UHGV virus genome: UHGV-0213490
Reading direction: 5' to 3' (one strand)
Length of the DNA: 25,438 bases
DNA from: a virus
Positions 4,630 through 24,613 of the stretch are shown here, piece after piece (positions within the stretch are counted from its first letter, which is position 1; every line of letters begins with the position of its first letter). Both the position numbers and the translations under genes were made by a program. The notes below the pieces were generated by a model that was not told the origin of the DNA, made no database searches, and worked only from the letters and a program-made list of their open reading frames with translations.

Positions 4630-4867
4630 TAATCTCGTTGGCTTGATATTGACGCAGGTGTGCAGCCACTTTGGCTACGTTCAATGATGCTGCCTCTGTA
4701 AGACCGGCAATTTCCTTATCCAGTTCTGACAGGTTTTTGACCTGCAGTTCTCTGGAGTCACAGGCCCATTTCAGATCCTGTACCGCCTTAACTTTCTTGA
4801 TCATCCATTCGTAAATTTCATCATCGGTATAACCTGGCGCGATGATGACGGGTTCTGGTTTCTGCAT
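4607..4867 (-). CDS. Hypothetical early protein (first gene of leftward operon)
   Basis: 86-aa ORF about 190 bp downstream of the OL-like operator cluster. Confidence 0.5.
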   Translation of the reverse strand: MQKPEPVIIAPGYTDDEIYEWMIKKVKAVQDLKWACDSRELQVKNLSELDKEIAGLTEAASLNVAKVAAHLRQYQANEINDGRDRT

Positions 4868-5054
4868 ATTGATTCCTCGCAGTACTGTTTCCCCTTAACG
4901 CCGGGGTGGCGGAACAAAAACCTGCTGCATAGTTAAAGTTGAACCCTGCCGTCATGTTCTTACGCCTCGGGCTGGCTACTTAACCCCTGACCACTGCCTG
5001 GTAACTCGAAGTATTGCCCTGCGTTCTGTGGGGCGGGGTGGGTTGGCATGGAAA

Positions 5055-5121
5055 AACTATAGGTAATGCCTAATTATTTGTCAATAGGCTATGCCTAATA
5101 ATTTAGATGCAACCTAATAAG
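5055..5121. promoter_or_regulatory. OL-like operator cluster with putative leftward promoter
   Basis: aTAGGTaatGCCTAAt (5059-5074) and aTAGGCtatGCCTAAt (5084-5099) share half-sites with the OR palindromes; a third half-site CCTAAT lies near 5115. Confidence 0.55.
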
Positions 5122-5192
5122 TGATGGTATGTGGGAGATGTAGTAGGAGTTAACTAACGGGATCTAGGAGTTTCCCGTCGGACCATATAAGT

Positions 5193-5669
5193 TTAAGTTC
5201 CTGTCTTGGTGATGTTCTGGCTTTTCCGTTTTGATTCTTGATTTTTCAAATAGTTACCTACCTTCATTTCCATTGCGGCAATGTAGGCGCGAACGTCATG
5301 ATCAACCCAACTAGGCTCCGTAGCATTTCCAGATAAGAGGAAAGCTACAATTGCTCTTTTTTCATCAGAGGCGGCTTGATAAAGGCTGTTTATGTCTAAA
5401 AGTTCACTTTTTGTATTTGAAGTGGATGGGGTTGGTATGGGGTATTCGTTAAGCCCCCAATGCTCTGGACCAACCACATCAGAAAAGAAACGCCATAGTT
5501 CTGGAAGTTTATCTTTACTTATCGAACCTTTCTTAATCCAGTCATGGATTGATGGTGGTTGGACTTTGAAATGACGTGCGATCTCCGCCTTTGATTTGAC
5601 GGCTCCTGATGCAATTTTTTTGTTAATGGCCTGCTCTATCGCTCGGCCCAAGTCTTTACCACTAAGCAT
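5193..5669 (-). CDS. racR: Prophage repressor, RacR-like (HTH, no S24 peptidase domain)
   Basis: 158-aa ORF; N-terminal HTH (KSKAEIARHFKVQPPSIHDWIKKG); no LexA-like Ala-Gly/Ser-Lys autocleavage region; divergent from the cro-like gene; matches E. coli Rac RacR from memory. Confidence 0.75.
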   Translation of the reverse strand: MLSGKDLGRAIEQAINKKIASGAVKSKAEIARHFKVQPPSIHDWIKKGSISKDKLPELWRFFSDVVGPEHWGLNEYPIPTPSTSNTKSELLDINSLYQAASDEKRAIVAFLLSGNATEPSWVDHDVRAYIAAMEMKVGNYLKNQESKRKSQNITKTGT

Positions 5670-5694
5670 TGCTTAATAGTCTCCTATGCGCATC

Positions 5695-5766
5695 GCGTTA
5701 GGCAATCCCTATGTTTAGTGCATTAGGCATAGCCTATTGACAATTGCGTTAGGCGAAGCCTAATAT
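5695..5766. promoter_or_regulatory. OR-like tripartite operator with pR/pRM-type divergent promoters
   Basis: Three palindromes about 25 bp apart: TTAGGCaatCCCTAT (5698-5712), TTAGGCataGCCTAT (5723-5737), TTAGGCgaaGCCTAA (5749-5763); TTGACA (5737-5742) and TAATAT (5761-5766) with 18-bp spacer upstream of the cro-like ATG. Confidence 0.65.
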
Positions 5767-5793
5767 CATTGTGTGTTTTTTGGAGTTCATTCG

Positions 5794-6117
5794 ATGAAAA
5801 AAGAGAACTATTCATTCAAACGGGCTTGTGTTGTTGTCGGTGGGCAATCAGCAATGGCTAGGCTTTTAGGTGTATCTCCTCCAAGCGTAAATCAATGGAT
5901 CAAAGGTGTACGTCAGTTGCCTGCTGAGAGATGTCCTGCGATTGAACGAGCAACAAAAGGTGGTGTCCTGTGTGAAGAACTTCGTCCTGATGTTGATTGG
6001 TCATACTTACGACGCCTGTCATGTTATTCGCAGAATATGTCGATGAAGCAACCAAATGACGAAAACGATCATACCCGAAGCATCAAGAGGCAAATGATTC
6101 ATGAAAATCAAACATGA
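5794..6117 (+). CDS. ydaS: Cro/YdaS-like HTH regulator
   Basis: ATG 5794 (MKKENYSFKRACVVVGGQSAMARLLGVSPPSVNQWIKG) with HTH; first rightward gene after the operators; resembles Rac YdaS from memory. Confidence 0.75.
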   Translation: MKKENYSFKRACVVVGGQSAMARLLGVSPPSVNQWIKGVRQLPAERCPAIERATKGGVLCEELRPDVDWSYLRRLSCYSQNMSMKQPNDENDHTRSIKRQMIHENQT

Positions 6118-6526
6118 GCACATCCGCATGGCGATGAATGCCTGGGCGCGTCCGGATGGTGAAAAAGTTCCGGTAGCCGAGATAACCAGGGTTTATTTCG
6201 AGCTGGGCATGACGTTTCCTGAGCTGTACGACGACAGCCATCCGGAAGCCCTGGCCCGCAATACTCAGAAAATTTTCCGCTGGGTAGAGAAAGACACCCC
6301 TGATGCTGTTGAAAAAATTCAGGCGTTGTTACCAGCGATCGAAAAAGCAATGCCGCCTCTGCTGGTGGCCCGAATGCGCAGCCACAGTTCAGCCTTTTTT
6401 CGGGAACTGGTGGAGACGCGGGAACGACTGGTGAGAGACGCTGATGATTTTGTCGCAGTGGCGATCGCTGGTTTCAATCAGATGAATCGTGGTGGCCCGG
6501 CGGGAAATGCCGTGGTCGTTCATTAA
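6101..6526 (+). CDS. ydaT: YdaT-like protein (cII-position regulator or toxin-like)
   Basis: 141-aa ORF overlapping the end of the cro-like gene; RBS AAGAGG 9 nt upstream; position and size match Rac YdaT. Confidence 0.65.
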   Translation: MKIKHEHIRMAMNAWARPDGEKVPVAEITRVYFELGMTFPELYDDSHPEALARNTQKIFRWVEKDTPDAVEKIQALLPAIEKAMPPLLVARMRSHSSAFFRELVETRERLVRDADDFVAVAIAGFNQMNRGGPAGNAVVVH

Positions 6527-6547
6527 GAATAGTACAGGAGAAAATGG

Positions 6548-6841
6548 ATGACATTTACAAATGAAGGTCGAATTGTTTTTGATTTTGAGTACGAAACACC
6601 ATTGCAGAGATTGATTATGTTAAGAATTTTCTGCTCTGGGAGTGGTGATGGTGGGCGCGAAAAGCGTTTTGAAGATCAGGAATTCCGACGTTTTTGTTGT
6701 TGTACGTTTGATGAGTTTGAGCAGGCTATCGCGAAACTTATCGAGATGGGAGTGATTCATAAAATAAGTTATGGATATCAATACGGAAAGCCATCAAGCG
6801 GTTACATCATCAAAGATCCGGGTGAAATTATTCAGTTATGA
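6548..6841 (+). CDS. Hypothetical protein, translationally coupled to the replication initiator
   Basis: 97-aa ORF; its stop overlaps the ATG of the next gene (ATGA at 6838-6841). Confidence 0.5.
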   Translation: MTFTNEGRIVFDFEYETPLQRLIMLRIFCSGSGDGGREKRFEDQEFRRFCCCTFDEFEQAIAKLIEMGVIHKISYGYQYGKPSSGYIIKDPGEIIQL

Positions 6842-11316: not shown

Positions 11317-11653
11317 AAGGAAACAAAACAGAAACAGCAATTGCCGTTACCTGTTGTTATCATGGCAAGTAAACGTATCTCAGGCGAGCGCATTGCGCCG
11401 TTCTGACGCAGATAAACTAGCCTGGATAGATGGTGCTGGCAATAAAAAATAGCGTTTTCTTATCGGTGTCGGTAAGATTGCTGCGGGTGCTTGAGGCTGT
11501 CTGCCTCGGGCATGCCACTGTAAGGCAGACAGAGAAAAGCCCCAGTTAACATTACGCGTCCTGCAAGACGCTTAACATTAATCTGAGGCCCAATCTATGT
11601 CTCACAAATGTAGGTTAGCCTCTTACGTGCCGAAAGGCAAGGAGAAGCAGGCT

Positions 11654-11809
11654 ATGAAGCAGCAAAAGGCGATGTTAATCGCCCTGATCGTCATCTGTTT
11701 AACCGTCATAGTGACGGCACTGGTAACGAGGAAAGACCTCTGCGAGGTACGAATCCGAACCGGCCAGACGGAGGTTGCTGTCTTCGTGGACTACGAATCT
11801 GAGAAGTAA
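11654..11809 (+). CDS. hok: Hok/Gef-family type I toxin
   Basis: MKQQKAMLIALIVICLTVIVTALVTRKDLCEVRIRTGQTEVAVFVDYESEK: single TM plus conserved CE..R.G..EVA motif; AGGAGA RBS; in-frame upstream ATG at 11597 gives a mok-like extension. Confidence 0.85.
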   Translation: MKQQKAMLIALIVICLTVIVTALVTRKDLCEVRIRTGQTEVAVFVDYESEK

Positions 11810-12210: not shown

Positions 12211-12705
12211 TTGTGCTCTATGGCTGAGATTGTTGAAGGAGTGCACTATCTTTCGGTTGATGATCTTACTGAAATCAATCGCCTTTTAATTGAGCTTCAA
12301 ACACCAGATGAACCTGTAGGTGTGCTGAGTGTTGATAATTTAAGTTCTTCTCAGGCCCGTCCCAGCATGGTTCGATGGTATGAACAGATCAATGACATGT
12401 TTGTACTGGCATCGGTATTGATTGAAAGTCTGATTCAGAATCATCCGTTTGCTAATGCGAACAAACGAACAGCTATGATGGCTGGTTACGTCTTCTTGTT
12501 GTTGAATGGCTATGAGTTAACAGCACCAGGCGATGAAATCGTGGAAATGGCAGAGGGACTGGCCTGCAAAACCTATACTCGAGAAGATCTCGAGAACTGG
12601 TTGTGTTATTGGTCTCGTGCGTATGACAGCCGGGAATTATGTAAAACAGGCGCAACTATTGTTTTGTATGAAACTATCAAGCTTAAAATAGAACAGCAAA
12701 ACTAA
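12211..12705 (+). CDS. doc: Fic/Doc-family toxin (death-on-curing-like)
   Basis: Doc-type Fic motif HPFANANKRTA; alternative ATG at 12220. Confidence 0.8.
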   Translation: MCSMAEIVEGVHYLSVDDLTEINRLLIELQTPDEPVGVLSVDNLSSSQARPSMVRWYEQINDMFVLASVLIESLIQNHPFANANKRTAMMAGYVFLLLNGYELTAPGDEIVEMAEGLACKTYTREDLENWLCYWSRAYDSRELCKTGATIVLYETIKLKIEQQN

Positions 12706-14887: not shown

Positions 14888-15772
14888 TTATATTGGGCGC
14901 TTTGAATTCGATTTAAAGCGTCTTCCACTTATTCCAGAAACCCAAATGTCTTCCTCAAGAAAGTCAAGAAGGGCTTTTATTTCTTTTTTTGATGAAGGCA
15001 TGACAATTTTCTCAACGCCGCCAACTATTATGGTTTGTAAGGGGAATTTAACTTTAGCAGCTTCGGATTTAAACTTTGACATATTTGGGGGTGTTAGCAT
15101 CCCAGTCTGATTTATTAGTGTTACTTTATTTCTTATCACTGTATCTGCAACGGATTTTAGATCAAAACCTTGGGGAGTAGAAAATACACTAAGTTGACTA
15201 AATGCATTAAGTTCTTGGTCAGTAGCAGCAGAAAAATAGGACGACATGTCAAAAATGCTTCTTAGATTAAAGAAACTCTTAAATCGTATTGTATCATTGA
15301 TAATTATTGCAACTAGTTTATCATCAACATTAAAACCGATGCTATTAGCTTTACTAAAGGTAGTTTTGCTTGCAAAAAGCTTTCCAAAGAATGATTTTGA
15401 GGTATCTAAGATTTGTTTTTTGTTGAAAGTTTGTAGTGCAATAATATTGGGGTTTGCTGGCGCGTCAACACCAACAAATAATGCTTTAATATAACCAATA
15501 TCAATTTGGCTAGGATCCCAGATAGGCACGGCGGTAGGCCTATTGACTGCGTCAATCAGGCGTGCAGAATCAGTAAAGTTTTGTATTTCAAAACACTCAC
15601 TATGTTTTGGTGTATAACCGGCATAGAATGGTATCATATTGTTATGATGACTTTCAAAATATTGACGCTGTTGTTGGAAAATGGCCGTAACAGAAGTACT
15701 TGCTGTTGCATCAAGTTCGACTCTAACAATTCTCGTTGCAATTGTATTATCTATTACTGCAAAAAGTGCCAT
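14888..15772 (-). CDS. Unknown 294-aa soluble protein, gene 2 of AT-rich cassette (candidate defence effector)
   Basis: Long ORF in strongly AT-rich DNA on the opposite strand to the flanking phage genes; AAGGAT RBS; 5-nt gap from the upstream membrane gene; no motif I recognise. Confidence 0.7.
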   Translation of the reverse strand: MALFAVIDNTIATRIVRVELDATASTSVTAIFQQQRQYFESHHNNMIPFYAGYTPKHSECFEIQNFTDSARLIDAVNRPTAVPIWDPSQIDIGYIKALFVGVDAPANPNIIALQTFNKKQILDTSKSFFGKLFASKTTFSKANSIGFNVDDKLVAIIINDTIRFKSFFNLRSIFDMSSYFSAATDQELNAFSQLSVFSTPQGFDLKSVADTVIRNKVTLINQTGMLTPPNMSKFKSEAAKVKFPLQTIIVGGVEKIVMPSSKKEIKALLDFLEEDIWVSGISGRRFKSNSKRPI

Positions 15773-15777
15773 GGTTA

Positions 15778-16299
15778 TTATCCTTTAACATGTAGAAATG
15801 TGTAGTCTGTTAATTGAATAACTGTAAATTTGATATCTTTAATATCAGTAATGACTGATTTAGAAATCAATACAAAACCTACGCCGGTGTCATCTTCAGC
15901 TTCGTAAAATTTATAACCGATAAGTGACAATACTGGGTTAAAGTTATAGTTCTCGGAAAAGCTGATGTAAAATAACAATGACAAATAAAAGAATAACGCA
16001 TATGCTTTATTTTCAGCAATAGAATCTGTTCCTAGGAGAGGGAATAAATAGCTTAAGAAATAATTAGTTACTTCTTTGTTAGCTGGAGAAACTGAACTAA
16101 TATTTTTTGTCAGAGGTTCAAGTTGTTTCTCAGCATATTGAATCAGGCCTATTGCTAATAACCAACTTGCTATGCCAACGCATAAGCTATATTGCATCAG
16201 CCAAACCGTATCTTTTACATATCCAATAAAAAATAGAGTTGCGCAAACAGGTGCAATTGAGCTGGCCGTTAATAATAAGCGTGCTAATTTGTTCATCAT
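15778..16299 (-). CDS. Unknown 173-aa polytopic membrane protein, gene 1 of AT-rich cassette
   Basis: Three to four hydrophobic helices (LLLTASSIAPVCATLFFIGY, WLMQYSLCVGIASWLLAIGLIQY, YFLSYLFPLLG, AYALFFYLSLLFYISF) plus about 55-aa C-terminal tail; AAGGA RBS. Confidence 0.7.
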   Translation of the reverse strand: MMNKLARLLLTASSIAPVCATLFFIGYVKDTVWLMQYSLCVGIASWLLAIGLIQYAEKQLEPLTKNISSVSPANKEVTNYFLSYLFPLLGTDSIAENKAYALFFYLSLLFYISFSENYNFNPVLSLIGYKFYEAEDDTGVGFVLISKSVITDIKDIKFTVIQLTDYTFLHVKG

Positions 16300-16606
16300 G
16301 ATATCCTTTGTACTGTTTATGCATACAGCACTTTACATCATGTACTCCAAAGTATCTATCTTGTGAAGAATCTTACACTAAATACTACAGAAAAAGTTAA
16401 CGCGTACGCAAAAAGTATTATATCGTGTTAAGAGTGGTTACTTCGCCACACAGCTTAAACCCGCTCGACAGCGAGTTTTTTAGTGTCCGAAAAGCGGACC
16501 CAGCACGGTAAACGCGCTGGTGGTTGCGAATACTGGTCTTTAAGCTTGCTGGCTTTTTGGACAAGAGTTATTGGTATGTCACGTTAACCAGAAAAGGGAA
16601 AAAGAC

Positions 16607-18170: not shown

Positions 18171-18246
<76 letters not shown>

Positions 18247-18249
18247 TAT

Positions 18250-18324
<75 letters not shown>

Positions 18325-20088: not shown

Positions 20089-20184
20089 AAACTGACACTG
20101 AAGTGCTGAACACCCTCAACTCATGCAGGCTCTTTTCTGGGGCTACGATGAGCGAAAGTAAGGGGCATAGCATCAGATAGCAAA

Positions 20185-20220
20185 AACCCCGGCTGCGGTA
20201 ACAGTCCGGGGTTTTCTGTT
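20185..20220 (+). terminator. Rho-independent terminator after the endolysin
   Basis: CCCCGGCTG-cggtaa-CAGtCCGGGG followed by a T-rich run. Confidence 0.65.
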
Positions 20221-20248
20221 TCTGGCCTTGGGTAAGGCAAAGGAGAAC

Positions 20249-20431
20249 ATGAGGAAGTATAAACTAATTCTGTTGAGGTTGACTATGAAAAACGGCCTTG
20301 AATTGAAAGCGCCTGTAACTGATGACATCAGCAGAGCGGTGGCTTTTGCCATTAAGTGGGTGGCGGTCGGTATCACTGTGTCTCCGATTCTGTATGGGAT
20401 GGCAAAATTGATCATTGCTGTGAAATCGTAA
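20249..20431 (+). CDS. Small protein with C-terminal TM helix
   Basis: 60-aa ORF with AAGGAGAA RBS; C-terminal AVAFAIKWVAVGITVSPILYGMAKLIIAV. Confidence 0.45.
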   Translation: MRKYKLILLRLTMKNGLELKAPVTDDISRAVAFAIKWVAVGITVSPILYGMAKLIIAVKS

Positions 20432-20448
20432 GTGGGGCAGGGGTAAAT

Positions 20449-20583
20449 ATGTCAGATAGCATTATAAAACTGGCGCGAATTCTCTGTGTGGTTGTTGGCC
20501 TTTCATTTTCAGCAATGTTGGTTGCCATTTTCATTTCCACCGCCTGGCGAGTATTGAGCCTATCCGGATTGATTGGTGGATAG
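20449..20583 (+). CDS. 44-aa single-TM micro-protein
   Basis: ATG 20449 after GGGGCAGGGG; MSDSIIKLARILCVVVGLSFSAMLVAIFIST. Confidence 0.4.
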   Translation: MSDSIIKLARILCVVVGLSFSAMLVAIFISTAWRVLSLSGLIGG

Positions 20584-20587
20584 TGAG

Positions 20588-20770
20588 ATGAAGCGAAAAC
20601 ACTGGACACACAGAATGCCGCGAACGGCGGCGAAATGGGCACTGGTAGCGATACTGGTGCCTTTTTTCCTGGTGGGATGCGTCAGCCTGGATAAGGCGCG
20701 CCAGCTTTTCGATACAGCTTCTCAGATCTGTGAAATTGTCGACGGTGTTCGGCAGTGTATGCAGAACTGA
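20588..20770 (+). CDS. Small lipoprotein
   Basis: 60-aa ORF with signal peptide and lipobox (ALVAILVPFFLVGC); two further Cys in the mature part. Confidence 0.5.
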   Translation: MKRKHWTHRMPRTAAKWALVAILVPFFLVGCVSLDKARQLFDTASQICEIVDGVRQCMQN

Positions 20771-20944
20771 TCGCCTGTAAGAGCAGAATATTTTGCTGAA
20801 AAATGAAGGATGCGCCGGCGTCCGGAAAGCATGAAATTCTGTGTTTGTGGCTACTCAATAAAATAAATTCTTTCTGTCTGCGCGAATACTCAAATGTTGA
20901 TCAGCGCCCGGGGCGGTGACGGGCTTCGATATCAGGAGAAGATA

Positions 20945-21337
20945 ATGGAAAAGAAAGAAGACAAACCAATGGTAATTGGTGCTGTGGCTGTTCCGTTTAA
21001 GTTTGAACTGTCACAACTGGTGGAGATGCGCATCAGTGATGAATGGGGTGAGGTTAAAGCTCGCGCGCAGTATGCGGATGGCGAAAACCAGTACTTGATC
21101 CACTACAAGGCTGCTGATGGTCGCGCCACAACGGCGTGGTTTGGTGAGTCAATGCTGGAAGCAACAGAAGATGATCGCCATCCGGGCTGTCCGGTATTTG
21201 CCGGTATGAAATTACCGGAAGGTGCAGTTGAACTGCAGCCGGGTGAGGTGTTCGTAATGTCAGAAGTCATTGATGGCAAACCGCAGTATTCACGTATTGA
21301 AACTAACGGCAAGGACGTTTGTCTGGTTAGCAAGTAA
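20945..21337 (+). CDS. Hypothetical protein upstream of cos
   Basis: 130-aa ORF from ATG 20945 (MEKKEDKPMVIGAVAVPF...) with AGGAGAAGA RBS. Confidence 0.5.
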   Translation: MEKKEDKPMVIGAVAVPFKFELSQLVEMRISDEWGEVKARAQYADGENQYLIHYKAADGRATTAWFGESMLEATEDDRHPGCPVFAGMKLPEGAVELQPGEVFVMSEVIDGKPQYSRIETNGKDVCLVSK

Positions 21338-21724
21338 CTTGCATTACAGCAGCCCTTCAGTGAGGGGCTGCGATAATGTGAGAAATAAAAAACCGGTCAC
21401 AGGGAGTGGCTACACAGAACCGGCCGGCGAAGATCGCCAATACCACCCATGCTTCAGTAAAACATACATATGACATTAGCTGGTATTGATGTAAATGCAA
21501 TGTTACGCATCGACAAAAATAAAAAACCGGCAGGGGAAATCCATTGAAGATTTGCCGGTGGCAAAAGAGGGCCATGTTTTTAACCTTAGTCGCAGAGTTA
21601 CGGAGTGCAACTACGAATGCTGCCGGTATATGGCTGAATGGCGTTTCAATGATGTACGTCATCTTATCTGTAAATGTTAATGATAAACGCTCTCATTTGT
21701 GTGGGTCCTTCCGGTGGGGAGGCC

Positions 21725-21750
21725 TTCCACGGGGCGGGAGCGTCGCGGAA
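21725..21750. other. cos site (cosN-like) for DNA packaging
   Basis: CACGGGGCGGGAGCGTCGCGG closely resembles lambda cosN (ACGGGGCGGCGACCTCGCGG, from memory), about 180 bp upstream of the Nu1-like gene with an A/T-rich cosB-like tract between. Confidence 0.6.
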
Positions 21751-21927
21751 AAAGGCTAGTTTTTGCATTTTCATTCATCATCATCATCTTTTCAATGCAT
21801 TGAATTTAAACGAATTTTATTTTTAGTATGTTAATTTTGCGTGTTTTTTGGTCAACATATAACGCACTTTATAACGCTTTTTGAAAAGGTGTTCGCAAGA
21901 TGCATGTTTAAAACGTCAGGAGGGGAT

Positions 21928-22419
21928 ATGGATCGTGAGTTGAAAAATCTGATGCTGAACATTAACCAACTGGCGGCAATAGCAGGTATATGTCGTCAGA
22001 CTGCGGCGGCAAGACTGCAAAACATCCAGCCCGCCGGAGGACATGACAAGTTAAAGCTCTACCGGGTGGCAGATATTGTGTCGGCATTTCTGGCATTACC
22101 ACCGCCAGTTGCAGAAGGCGAAATGGACGCGCATGAGCGCAAAGCCTGGTATCAGTCTGAGCGTGAACGTCTTAAGTTTGAACAGGAAACAGCACAACTT
22201 ATTCCGGCAAGCGATGTCAGGCGGGAATTTGCCATCTGGGCAAAAGCGGTGGTACAGGTGCTGGAGACATTACCCGATGTTCTGGAGCGTGACTGCGGTC
22301 TGCAGCCCACTGCTGTAAGTCGTGTTCAGACCATCATTGATGATCTGCGCGATCAGATAGCCCAACGGGTGACCGAAACAGGTGCGGATGATGAGGAGGA
22401 ATTACATCAGGAGGAGTAA
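21928..22419 (+). CDS. Terminase small subunit (lambda Nu1-like)
   Basis: MDRELKNLMLNINQLAAIAGICRQTAAARLQNI is an N-terminal HTH comparable to Nu1; acidic C-terminus; lies just downstream of cos. Confidence 0.7.
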   Translation: MDRELKNLMLNINQLAAIAGICRQTAAARLQNIQPAGGHDKLKLYRVADIVSAFLALPPPVAEGEMDAHERKAWYQSERERLKFEQETAQLIPASDVRREFAIWAKAVVQVLETLPDVLERDCGLQPTAVSRVQTIIDDLRDQIAQRVTETGADDEEELHQEE

Positions 22420-22501
22420 TGCTGAATCAGGAAACCGCAAAGGCAGCACGAACCGATTCAGGTTATATCCTTCGTGCACCGAGACGAATGCGGATTGCTG
22501 A

Positions 22502-23524
22502 TGCTGTCGCTCAATATATGCGGGTATTCTTGCGAAATCGACCGTTGCTGCCGTTATCGAATACCTCGGTTTACAGGAAACGGTAAATCAGGCTTCTGGC
22601 GCATTACAGAAAAACCAGAACGGCGCAGATATTCCAGGAAAAGATACCTTCACCAAAAATATTGGTGCCTGCCGCGCATATAGCGCATGGCTGAATATTG
22701 GTGGCGATAGTCAGGTCTGGACAACCGCGCAATTTATTTCGTGGCTGGAGAGTCAGGGAGCATTTAACCATCCTTACTGGATGTGCAAAGGCTCATGGGC
22801 TTATGCAAACAATAAGGTCATTACAGATACAGGTTGCGGAAATATTTGTCTTGCAGGTGCTGTGGTGGAAGTTATTGGCACTCGCGGCGCAATGACCATA
22901 CGCGTTACCACGCCGAGTACGTCCAGCGGCGGCGGAATCACTAACGCTCAATTCACTTATATTAATCATGGTGATGCTTACGCTCCTGGCTGGCGACGAG
23001 ACTACAACACGAAAAACCAGCAGCCTGCATTTGCTTTAGGGCAAACAGGAAGCACTGTCGGAAATGATAAAGCTGTTGGCTGGAACTGGAATAGCGGGGT
23101 CTATAACGCAAATATTGGTGGCGCATCGACATTAATCCTCCATTTCAATATGAATGCGGGGAGTTGCCCTGCTGTACAGTTCCGCGTGAATTATAAGAAC
23201 GGCGGTATTTTTTATCGTTCAGCGCGTGATGCTTATGGATTTGAGACTGACTGGTCAGAATTCTACACCACAACACGTAAGCCATCAGCGGGAGATGTTG
23301 GTGCATATACGCGGGCAGAATGTAACTCAAGGTTTATTACAGGTATTCGCCTTGGCGGTCTGTTATCTGTTAAGACATGGCATGGTTCTGGCTGGTCTGA
23401 CAGGTCAGGTTATGTCGTTACGGGTTCAGTTAACGAAAACCGTGATGAATTAATTGATACAATTCAGGCAAGGCCAATTCAGTATTGCATTAATGGGGTG
23501 TGGTATAACGCGGGGAGTATTTAA
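22502..23524 (+). pseudogene. Side tail fibre protein, 3' fragment (N-terminal part missing)
   Basis: Open frame with no start before the in-frame TGA at 22499-22501; GALQKNQNGADIPGKD resembles the conserved RLQKDQNGADIPDKG motif of lambda-type Stf; followed by tfa. Confidence 0.6.
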
Positions 23525-23526
23525 CG

Positions 23527-24069
23527 ATGATGCACTTAAAAAACATTACTGCTGGAAACCCTAAAACAAAAGAGCAATACCAGCTAACGAAACAATTTAA
23601 CATCAAATGGCTTTATACAGAGGATGGGAAAAACTGGTATGAGGAACAAAAGAACTTTCAGCCTGATACGTTGAAAATGGTCTATGACCACAACGGCGTT
23701 ATTATTTGTATTGAAAAGGATGTTTCAGCAATTAATCCGGAAGGCGCAAGCGTCGTTGAATTACCTGATATTACAGCAAATCGCCGGGCTGATATTTCGG
23801 GTAAATGGATGTTTAAGGATGGCGTGGTAATTAACCGGGAATGCACTTATGAAGAACTGGTGCAGCAGGCAAAAAATAAAAAGAGCTTATTAATGCGACA
23901 GGCCGATGATTGCATGGCACCCCTTCGGGATGCTGTGGATTTGGATATGGCGACAGAGGGGGAAAAGGAACAGTTACTGACCTGGAAGAAATATCGGGTG
24001 TTACTAAACCGTGTTGATACATCGACCGCGCCGGATATTGAATGGCCGGAAGAACCAGACACAATGTAA
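23527..24069 (+). CDS. tfa: Tail fibre assembly protein
   Basis: [48 protein letters not shown]...[16 protein letters not shown] is a typical Tfa sequence. Confidence 0.85.
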
Positions 24070-24232
24070 GCGAAAAGAAAAACCGCAGACACGACGTATG
24101 CAGGACGTGCTGCGGTTGGCTGGCGAACTTTCGATAGTGCGAGTATTGAATGATTTCCAGCCGTTATTGATTTTATATAACTGTAGTGGAGTTATTCAAC
24201 ACACAGGCAAAACGGAATAATCTGAGAAAAAA

Positions 24233-24525: not shown

Positions 24526-24613
24526 TGGCGGAAGCGCAGAGATTCGAACTCTGGAACCCTTTCGGGTCGCCGGTTTTCAAGACCGGTGCCTTCAACCGCT
24601 CGGCCACACTTCC
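24526..24613 (-). tRNA. serT: tRNA-Ser(UGA), host serT
   Basis: Reverse complement reads GGAAGTGTGGCCGAGCGGTTGAAGGCACCGGTCTTGAAAACCGG...GAGTTCGAATCTCTGCGCTTCCGCCA: long variable arm, anticodon UGA, 88 nt. Confidence 0.9.

Follow-up and report, generated by a model that had tools for sequence, protein, structure and literature searches.

The closest described relatives of the locus considered here are the immunity genes of two Escherichia coli prophages, Rac of strain K-12 and CP-933P of E. coli O157:H7. The locus lies at positions 5055-6526 of a 25,438-nucleotide stretch of viral DNA (UHGV virus genome UHGV-0213490, called the window as a whole), and consists of a repressor gene, racR, set between two operator clusters and followed by ydaS and ydaT. 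The 123-bp racR-ydaS spacer of K-12 contains three variant GCCTAA/TTAGGC repeats, and K-12 RacR forms three complexes with DNA, is enriched in chromatin immunoprecipitation and represses ydaS (Krishnamurthi et al., PMC5700373). Footprints of the same protein yielded the consensus (T/A)TAGGC-n3-GCCTA(T/A), with site O1 on the ydaST promoter and site O3 on the racR ATG (Wisniewska et al., PMC9638921). K-12 RacR has a five-helix CI-like N-terminal domain and a C-terminal domain unlike that of CI, and has been reported as an octamer, with four inverted repeats (PMC11014345). YdaT binds DNA as a tetramer and activates a reverse, PRE-like promoter of the repressor gene (PMC9986795, PMC11879457). The K-12 protein was footprinted on ATGATTCATGAAAATCAA across the ydaT ATG, and this YdaT-box activates the reverse promoter PracR4 (-35 TTGACG) inside ydaS by up to 29-fold, raising racR expression; CP-933P YdaT cross-activates PracR4 (Wons et al., PMC11879457). 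YdaS and YdaT of CP-933P act like Cro and CII (Jurenas et al., PMC8630535; Prolic-Kalinsek et al., PMC9986795), and YdaS is currently viewed in the literature as an analogue of Cro, and YdaT as one of CII.

The region analysed here is very probably (we put the probability at about 0.88) a lambda-like immunity, or lysis-lysogeny, switch of a lambdoid prophage with Rac immunity, whose induction is independent of RecA cleavage. As in lambdoid immunity regions, the repressor gene is flanked by two multipartite operator sets, each lying over an outward-facing early promoter. The right operator (OR) sites of RacR, the ydaST promoter, the YdaT-box and the domain layout are already published for K-12 Rac, and because the parts have been described in K-12 and CP-933P, the switch is almost wholly characterised already. 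What remains is incremental and modest: the left operator and promoter (OL/PL) for RacR, the swapping of C-terminal domains, and a mosaic joint just after the YdaT-box. The main value of the analysis lies in correct annotation, since Pfam names YdaS and YdaT "toxin", by which a phage immunity switch may be mistaken for a toxin-antitoxin system. The three genes are as follows.

5193-5669, minus strand: racR, 158 residues, putative CI-analogue repressor
5794-6117, plus strand: ydaS, 107 residues, putative Cro analogue
6101-6526, plus strand: ydaT, 141 residues, putative CII analogue of the CP-933P/3C4R allelic type

RacR and the operator clusters on either side of its gene

Judged by its sequence, the protein encoded between the two clusters is RacR. 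In a gapless, full-length collinear alignment, 145 of its 158 residues (92%) agree with E. coli K-12 RacR (b1356), and it scores 246.4 bits (E 1.1e-73) against the NCBIfam RacR equivalog model NF049929, above its cut-off of 200, which bears out an original prediction, made from the sequence alone, of a Rac-type immunity switch. An N-terminal helix-turn-helix (HTH) domain (approximately residues 1-72) is followed by a linker and a short helical C-terminal domain, the layout also reported for the K-12 protein (PMC9638921, PMC11014345). Our single-sequence AlphaFold model of RacR contains no strands, but it is poor, with a mean predicted local distance difference test score (pLDDT) of 44; the helical C-terminal fold therefore rests on the published AlphaFold and ESM models of K-12 RacR, which show three helices unlike the C-terminal domain of CI (PMC9638921, PMC11014345).

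The palindrome TTAGGC-N3-GCCTAA, with at most two mismatches, is matched five times in the 25.4 kb (starting at 5059, 5084, 5698, 5723 and 5749), and all five matches fall in two clusters on either side of racR. Chance would give 0.76 matches, and five were not reached in any of 100 shuffles. Relaxing the limit to three mismatches yields 14 matches across the window, not significantly more than the 9.4 expected, and two of the additional matches (5103-5117 and 5662-5676) fall inside the clusters. Within the stretch 4800-6600, a promoter scan returned exactly two sigma-70-like sites, one per cluster and both facing away from racR. The racR-ydaS side carries the following features.

5749-5763: OR1, TTAGGCGAAGCCTAA, perfect palindrome over the spacer and -10 of the rightward promoter, the published O1
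5723-5737: OR2, TTAGGCATAGCCTAT, abutting the -35 TTGACA of the rightward promoter
5698-5712: OR3, TTAGGCAATCCCTAT, in the racR promoter region
5662-5676: OR4, CTAAGCATTGCTTAA, weak (3 mismatches), on the racR start codon, corresponding to the published O3
5737-5766, plus strand: PR-like promoter (PydaST), TTGACA-18-TAATAT, for ydaS, ydaT and the replication genes

The original prediction placed the palindrome three times in this intergenic region; three sites within two mismatches are indeed present, yet OR1 is the only perfect copy in the window (the other four such sites have one or two mismatches) and a fourth, published site exists. That fourth site, at position -7, is kept in all relatives and matches better there. 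The four sites are spaced at 36, 25 and 26 bp, the palindrome agrees with the published RacR consensus (PMC5700373, PMC9638921), and the hexamers of PydaST and their 18-bp spacing are identical to those mapped experimentally in K-12 (PMC11879457). When the OR region is aligned with that of K-12, differences occur only between the sites. By analogy, we infer that this RacR allele behaves like that of K-12, including its binding at OR.

On the other side of the repressor gene lies a second cluster, together with a promoter and an untranslated leader.

5059-5073: OL1, ATAGGTAATGCCTAA, over the spacer and -10 of the leftward promoter
5084-5098: OL2, ATAGGCTATGCCTAA, abutting the -35 of the leftward promoter, within a 22-nt mirror copy of OR2 plus the -35
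5103-5117: possible OL3, TTAGATGCAACCTAA, weak (3 mismatches), 19 bp from OL2
5084-5056, minus strand: PL-like promoter, TTGACA-17-TATAGT, matching 11 of 12 consensus positions
4868-5055, minus strand: leader of the PL transcript, about 190 nt, untranslated, with a C-rich 5' end

Both clusters share one register, with an operator directly adjoining the -35 and its neighbour lying over the spacer and the -10. They are joined by a 22-nt perfect inverted repeat (5078-5099 and 5722-5743), which shows OL/PL and OR/PR to be mirror copies; OL2 and OR2 lie 639 bp apart, centre to centre. PL reads leftward into seven minus-strand open reading frames (ORFs), the last of which encode the exonuclease, xis and int. 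The OL cluster is nearly identical in the alignment with K-12 Rac, where the leftward genes are derepressed 40-70-fold or more when RacR falls, with ydaG, ydaF, kilR, racC, recE, xisR and intR all rising strongly on depletion (PMC6765115, bioRxiv 10.64898/2026.09.06.749655). Because the layout is conserved and these K-12 genes are derepressed, we conclude that OL/PL is functional and presumably bound by RacR, and that the OL-like cluster of the original prediction is real. Looping between OL and OR by RacR is plausible. The open-access papers searched contain no description of OL, PL or looping for RacR, although the older subscription literature on sbcA/recE may differ. OL/PL would provide a direct route from RacR loss to the expression of int, xis and the exonuclease, which could extend the published K-12 model.

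Despite different downstream genes, conservation of the PL leader with K-12 is about 90%, and the leader could be a Rho-utilisation-like tract. A structured, put- or nut-like RNA was considered for this leader and rejected, its fold being no more stable than that of shuffled sequences (z +1.24); 4868-5055 gave no Rfam match, and the leader shows no conservation outside Escherichia.

RacR was used as the query to retrieve twelve genome loci. Loci of Escherichia, E. ruysiae, Mixta, a Pseudomonadota metagenome-assembled genome (MAG) and Proteus, and two of Achromobacter, repeat the pair "site-TTGACA-N5/6-site over -10" downstream of the repressor gene, with flanks that cannot be aligned among them; the Klebsiella and Nitrosomonas loci show no OL within the 3-kb flank. 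OR together with the OL/PL layout is kept in Mixta, Proteus, the Pseudomonadota MAG and Achromobacter at 58-78% protein identity, and the register of PL and its operators is preserved from Escherichia to Proteus and Achromobacter, while the OL-OR spacing in relatives ranges from 614 bp to about 2.6 kb. Over 30 distinct sites the half-site reads wTAGGC, with T2, A3 and G5 invariant in all 60 half-sites. Viral sequences were sampled as 80 IMG/VR contigs encoding RacR, 78 of them with enough sequence to score OL: all 80 carry three OR sites and all 78 carry two or three OL sites, whereas stray sites amount to one in 449 kb of viral contigs. The possible OL3 reaches the two-mismatch threshold in 47 of the 78, and one of its half-sites is kept in Escherichia. 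One of the retrieved loci, L005 (JARKOR010000130.1), is a complete RacR locus (92% identical, with OL and OR) on a 5.2-kb contig binned as "Candidatus Nanosynbacter", which is almost certainly mis-binned E. coli DNA.

C-terminal module of RacR and the ydaS-ydaT pair

The original prediction described the repressor as having an HTH and no LexA-like autoproteolysis domain, and the claim that RacR is non-cleavable is supported. No Pfam match to Peptidase_S24 was obtained in RacR even at E<=1, while the same scan detects this domain (E about 6e-15 to 2e-14) in three relatives that share 65-78% of their first 77-79 residues with RacR.

L011, 3001-4101: S24-bearing relative
L013, 3001-4089: S24-bearing relative
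L014, 3001-3678: S24-bearing relative

These relatives carry a GDSMEP or GESM motif; the 158-residue RacR sequence contains neither a G-x-S-M motif nor an Ala-Gly or Cys-Gly dipeptide. About 68 residues follow the linker in RacR, against S24 matches of about 125 residues in the relatives, and the hidden Markov model (HMM) of the family has no match to LexA or lambda CI. A homologue search with the 78-residue N-terminal domain returned 37 proteins, mostly truncated and uninformative on C-terminal domains. An exhaustive search with the same domain gave 603 cluster representatives; S24 occurs in 33 of the best 140 of these 603, about a quarter, and a RacR-like C-terminal domain is detectable in only six sequences of the set, the window protein included. 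Among the relatives, the DNA-binding module and the operator layout are constant and the C-terminal module is swapped. The S24-bearing cousins thus offer a natural domain-swap series for studying how CI analogues lacking S24 are induced.

Both downstream genes belong to the families named in the original prediction, with scores above the gathering cut-offs. YdaS matches PF15943 (E 1e-29, 102.5 bits, cut-off 30) as well as P22_Cro (PF14549; E 2e-8, 34.3 bits, cut-off 30.2) and HTH_3, resembles solved Cro proteins (PDB 3bd1, E 3e-10), and has an HTH motif like that of RacR. YdaT matches PF06254 (E 8e-10, 39.5 bits, cut-off 21), is nearly identical to PDB 3C4R (E 3e-88) and is close to CP-933P YdaT (PDB 8BT1, E 1.5e-78). 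The alignment with the K-12 proteins that had been proposed as a check turned out well for RacR and for YdaS, which is identical at 83 of 98 aligned residues (85%), but not for YdaT, which shares only 33% identity with the toxic K-12 protein. Of the 80 viral contigs, 79 join this RacR with a CP-933P-type YdaT.

A GGAG lies 5' of ydaS at 5782-5785. The gene is nine codons longer than in K-12; compared with that strain, it has lost its stop codon to a 12-bp deletion and continues for 17 nt inside ydaT. Two regulatory features lie in and at the end of this gene.

6094-6111: YdaT-box, ATGATTCATGAAAATCAA, at the ydaS/ydaT junction, with the ydaT ATG inside its spacer
5911-5916, minus strand: -35 of the PRE-like promoter (PracR4) inside ydaS, CTGACG here and TTGACG in K-12, placed by homology only

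The YdaT-box is the only match in the window with at most one mismatch; it is identical to the DNase I-footprinted K-12 box and one base away from the OM site of CP-933P (PMC11879457, PMC9986795). The immunity cassette has mosaic joints at about 6112-6130 and about 4868-4900: on one side identity with K-12 Rac is lost immediately behind the YdaT-box, some 25 nt after the start of ydaT, and on the other where the PL leader ends.

Proposed mechanism and alternative readings

We propose that RacR binds its 15-bp (T/A)TAGGC-N3-GCCTA(T/A) operators as an oligomer. At the four OR sites it would shut off the strong rightward promoter, and with it ydaS, ydaT and the replication genes, and would autoregulate racR; at two or three OL sites it would shut off the mirror-image leftward promoter, which serves the small ORFs, the exonuclease, xis and int. 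YdaS, with an HTH similar to that of RacR, would be the analogue of Cro, and YdaT that of CII, binding the YdaT-box on its own start codon, boosting the reverse promoter in ydaS and thereby raising racR expression. At the C-terminus of RacR, a short helical oligomerisation domain would take the place of the S24 autoprotease. Since RacR is without this autoprotease, derepression could not proceed by RecA-stimulated self-cleavage, and would instead have to come about through lower RacR levels, a competitor or an antirepressor. A wider reading of the whole family would combine a constant DNA-binding domain, constant operators and a constant layout with interchangeable C-terminal modules, so that induction is uncoupled from RecA and an oligomeric RacR bridges OL and OR over about 640 bp, gating int and xis directly. 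We offer this tentatively and find it rather doubtful as a whole; if it were true, the direct gating of int and xis could explain Rac excision on RacR depletion.

Several points weigh against an immunity switch of this kind. The evidence for binding and expression belongs to the K-12 allele. Codon 42 of racR (5544-5546) encodes H here and Y in K-12, which places the difference in the recognition helix described for RacR, spanning residues 38-47 (PPSIHDWIKK against PPSIYDWIKK), while the operator half-sites are unchanged. The oligomeric state of RacR, and with it looping, is uncertain because the octamer estimate came from Superdex 75, whose range ends near 70 kDa. The -35 of the PRE-like promoter is one substitution away from that of K-12. 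Moreover, YdaS is not a perfect Cro, since K-12 YdaS did not repress racR (PMC9638921). Finally, the prophage looks defective, because capsid and tail genes are missing between its lysis cassette and its tail-fibre remnants, and a true lysis-lysogeny decision may therefore be vestigial.

The defective appearance of the prophage, whose switch is nevertheless intact, also favours the suggestion of the original prediction and of the 2017 mSphere papers (PMC5700373, PMC5700377) that the region is kept as a repressor-guarded toxin, or addiction module, in which YdaS and YdaT would serve only to kill cells that lose RacR and so stabilise a cryptic prophage. Deletion of racR in K-12 is lethal and was recovered only together with deletion of ydaS-ydaT, its knock-down leads to filamentation and death (PMC5700373, PMC5700377), and the Pfam family names still read "toxin". 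The assays that the original prediction called for, namely mobility shifts or footprints at OR, lethality of a racR deletion and rescue by deleting ydaST, are thus already published for K-12 (PMC5700373, PMC5700377, PMC9638921). The toxicity data, however, concern the K-12 proteins, whereas YdaT here is of the divergent CP-933P/3C4R type, for which toxicity was not detected (PMC8630535), and no toxin-antitoxin behaviour of ydaST is found in the literature (PMC8630535; PMC5917428, citing Christensen-Dalsgaard 2010). YdaS and YdaT bind DNA as regulators, and their operators and target promoters are defined (PMC9986795, PMC11879457); viral contigs of 40-48 kb also contain the cassette, and a second operator and promoter set for int, xis and the exonuclease would be needless in a two-gene addiction module; the critique of Jobling argues likewise for Rac (PMC5917428). 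We consequently regard the toxin guard as unlikely and not supported in the form predicted, while noting that it is not strictly exclusive of an immunity switch. Repressor loss may possibly be lethal here too, as a by-product of a derepressed phage early programme and not as the sign of a dedicated toxin module.

Two further alternatives concern single components of the switch. One holds that the OL-like cluster is a relic without function, duplicated from OR by chance, and that RacR acts only at OR; OL3 is weak in the window, and the papers searched offered no RacR binding data for the OL region. Such a leftover would hardly consist of two sites 25 bp apart in register with a near-consensus promoter, be kept in K-12, in every informative viral contig and in distant genera whose flanks have fully diverged, or be accompanied in K-12 by derepression of ydaG, ydaF, kilR, recE, xisR and intR when RacR falls (PMC6765115; bioRxiv 10.64898/2026.09.06.749655); the sister repressor PaaR2, moreover, has a tested PL/OL (PMC8630535). 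We therefore consider this very improbable. The other supposes that RacR is an SOS-cleavable repressor of the CI/LexA type, with a protease domain too diverged for sequence models. About a quarter of the proteins with the same N-terminal domain do carry S24, so that the lineage has that history, and our AlphaFold model is too poor to settle the fold. Against it stand the roughly 68 residues left after the linker, the missing catalytic and cleavage-type motifs, the silence of a Pfam model that is clear in relatives, the failure of the family HMM to match LexA or lambda CI, and the three-helix models published for K-12 RacR (PMC9638921, PMC11014345), which together make a hidden protease the least credible of the alternatives. 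The immunity switch thus remains our preferred reading.

Prophage context and comparison with known systems

The window forms the left arm of a lambdoid prophage. Its right flank is E. coli hyaA/tRNA-Ser at 98.6% identity, and the prophage is integrated beside tRNA-Ser/hyaA in an E. coli-like chromosome. Its gene order is given below.

Minus strand: integrase (1-1020), excisionase, 752-residue exonuclease and four small ORFs; the immunity region, with genes on both strands, follows
After the immunity region: O-like replication gene, DUF977, hok/sok, Fic protein, DUF968, RusA and Q
After Q: Kiwa pair, methylase, two tRNAs, holin and endolysin; about 2.5 kb further on, tail-fibre remnants and tRNA-Ser

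From the endolysin to the tRNA-Ser junction (20100-24100), only a DUF1441 protein and two tail-fibre-related ORFs are present. Homology to K-12 Rac is confined to about 4890-6125, the remainder being mosaic or unrelated; a broader match to K-12 Rac was rejected, as besides the immunity cassette only partial exonuclease and tail-fibre similarity was found. The 761-bp OL-racR-OR segment, at >=80% coverage, is present in 1086 of 5426 complete E. coli genomes, about a fifth. Records named "vB_Eco...R" were considered as induced, viable phages with RacR immunity and rejected: they come from a survey of phages located within clinical-isolate genomes, and therefore give no evidence of induction.

Several other elements of the prophage are worth recording. 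The early-right operon includes a hok/sok type I toxin-antitoxin locus, recognised by its sok antisense RNA (11485-11659; Rfam RF01794, 118 bits); a Fic/DOC family protein (12211-12705; PF02661, E 1e-11) lies upstream of the DUF968-RusA-Q cluster. Prophage-borne tRNA-Thr(TGT) and tRNA-Gly(TCC) genes (18171-18324) are located just 5' of the lysis genes, and tRNA-Ser(TGA) (24526-24613), beside hyaA, lies at the junction with the chromosome. Between the Q antiterminator and the DNA methylase, the minus strand encodes a Kiwa anti-phage pair, KwaA at 15778-16299 (PADLOC E 2e-83) and KwaB at 14888-15772 (E 1e-149). Because a good LexA-box-like sequence, CTGTATGCATAAACAG (16313-16328), precedes kwaA, 14 nt upstream of its ATG, the pair may be a defence moron under SOS control. 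An SOS-controlled antirepressor in the window was considered and rejected, since the sole perfect CTGT-N8-ACAG precedes the Kiwa operon and not an antirepressor-like gene.

Among described systems, K-12 Rac (b1356-b1358) is the closest to the window switch. The two have in common RacR (92% identical), the OR operators, the hexamers and spacing of PydaST, the YdaT-box, the OL/PL sequence, the PL leader and YdaS (85% identical). They differ in the YdaT allele (33% identity), in ydaS, which is shorter in K-12, in the -35 of the PRE-like promoter (TTGACG in K-12) and in RacR residue 42 (Y in K-12); the window also lacks kilR, sieB, ydaU and ydaV, has a different integrase, and is integrated at tRNA-Ser/hyaA instead of ttcA.

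The paaR2-ydaS-ydaT region of CP-933P shares the YdaT type and the YdaT operator at the ydaS/ydaT junction. Its repressor PaaR2 is, like RacR, oligomeric and without S24, and an experimentally tested PL/OL, with promoter hexamers identical to those of PR, lies beyond the repressor operon (PMC8630535, PMC9986795). PaaR2 is nevertheless a different repressor with other operators, and shares its transcript with the toxin-antitoxin genes paaA2-parE2; the window has no such pair in the interval from racR to OL, where only 94 bp separate the racR stop from the weak OL3.

Lambda cI-cro-cII shows no sequence similarity to the window switch but a similar plan: a divergent repressor/Cro pair, multipartite operators at about 24-26-bp spacing over PR and PL flanking the repressor gene, a CII-type activator of a reverse promoter, and an O-like replication gene downstream. 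Unlike lambda, the window switch has no S24 domain, hence no RecA-mediated cleavage, has four OR sites, one of them on the start codon, and contains no recognisable N/nut elements; its OL-OR distance is about 640-690 bp, enclosing only the repressor gene, as opposed to 2.3 kb in lambda.

The Achromobacter loci L011 and L013 agree with the window in their N-terminal domain (77-78% identical over residues 1-77), TTAGGC-N3-GCCTAA operators, divergent YdaS-like gene and OL pair over a TTGACA promoter. In contrast to RacR, their repressors are proteins of 362-366 residues with a C-terminal Peptidase_S24 domain bearing GDSMEP, and are presumably SOS-cleavable, while OL is 1.9-2.5 kb downstream, beyond additional genes.

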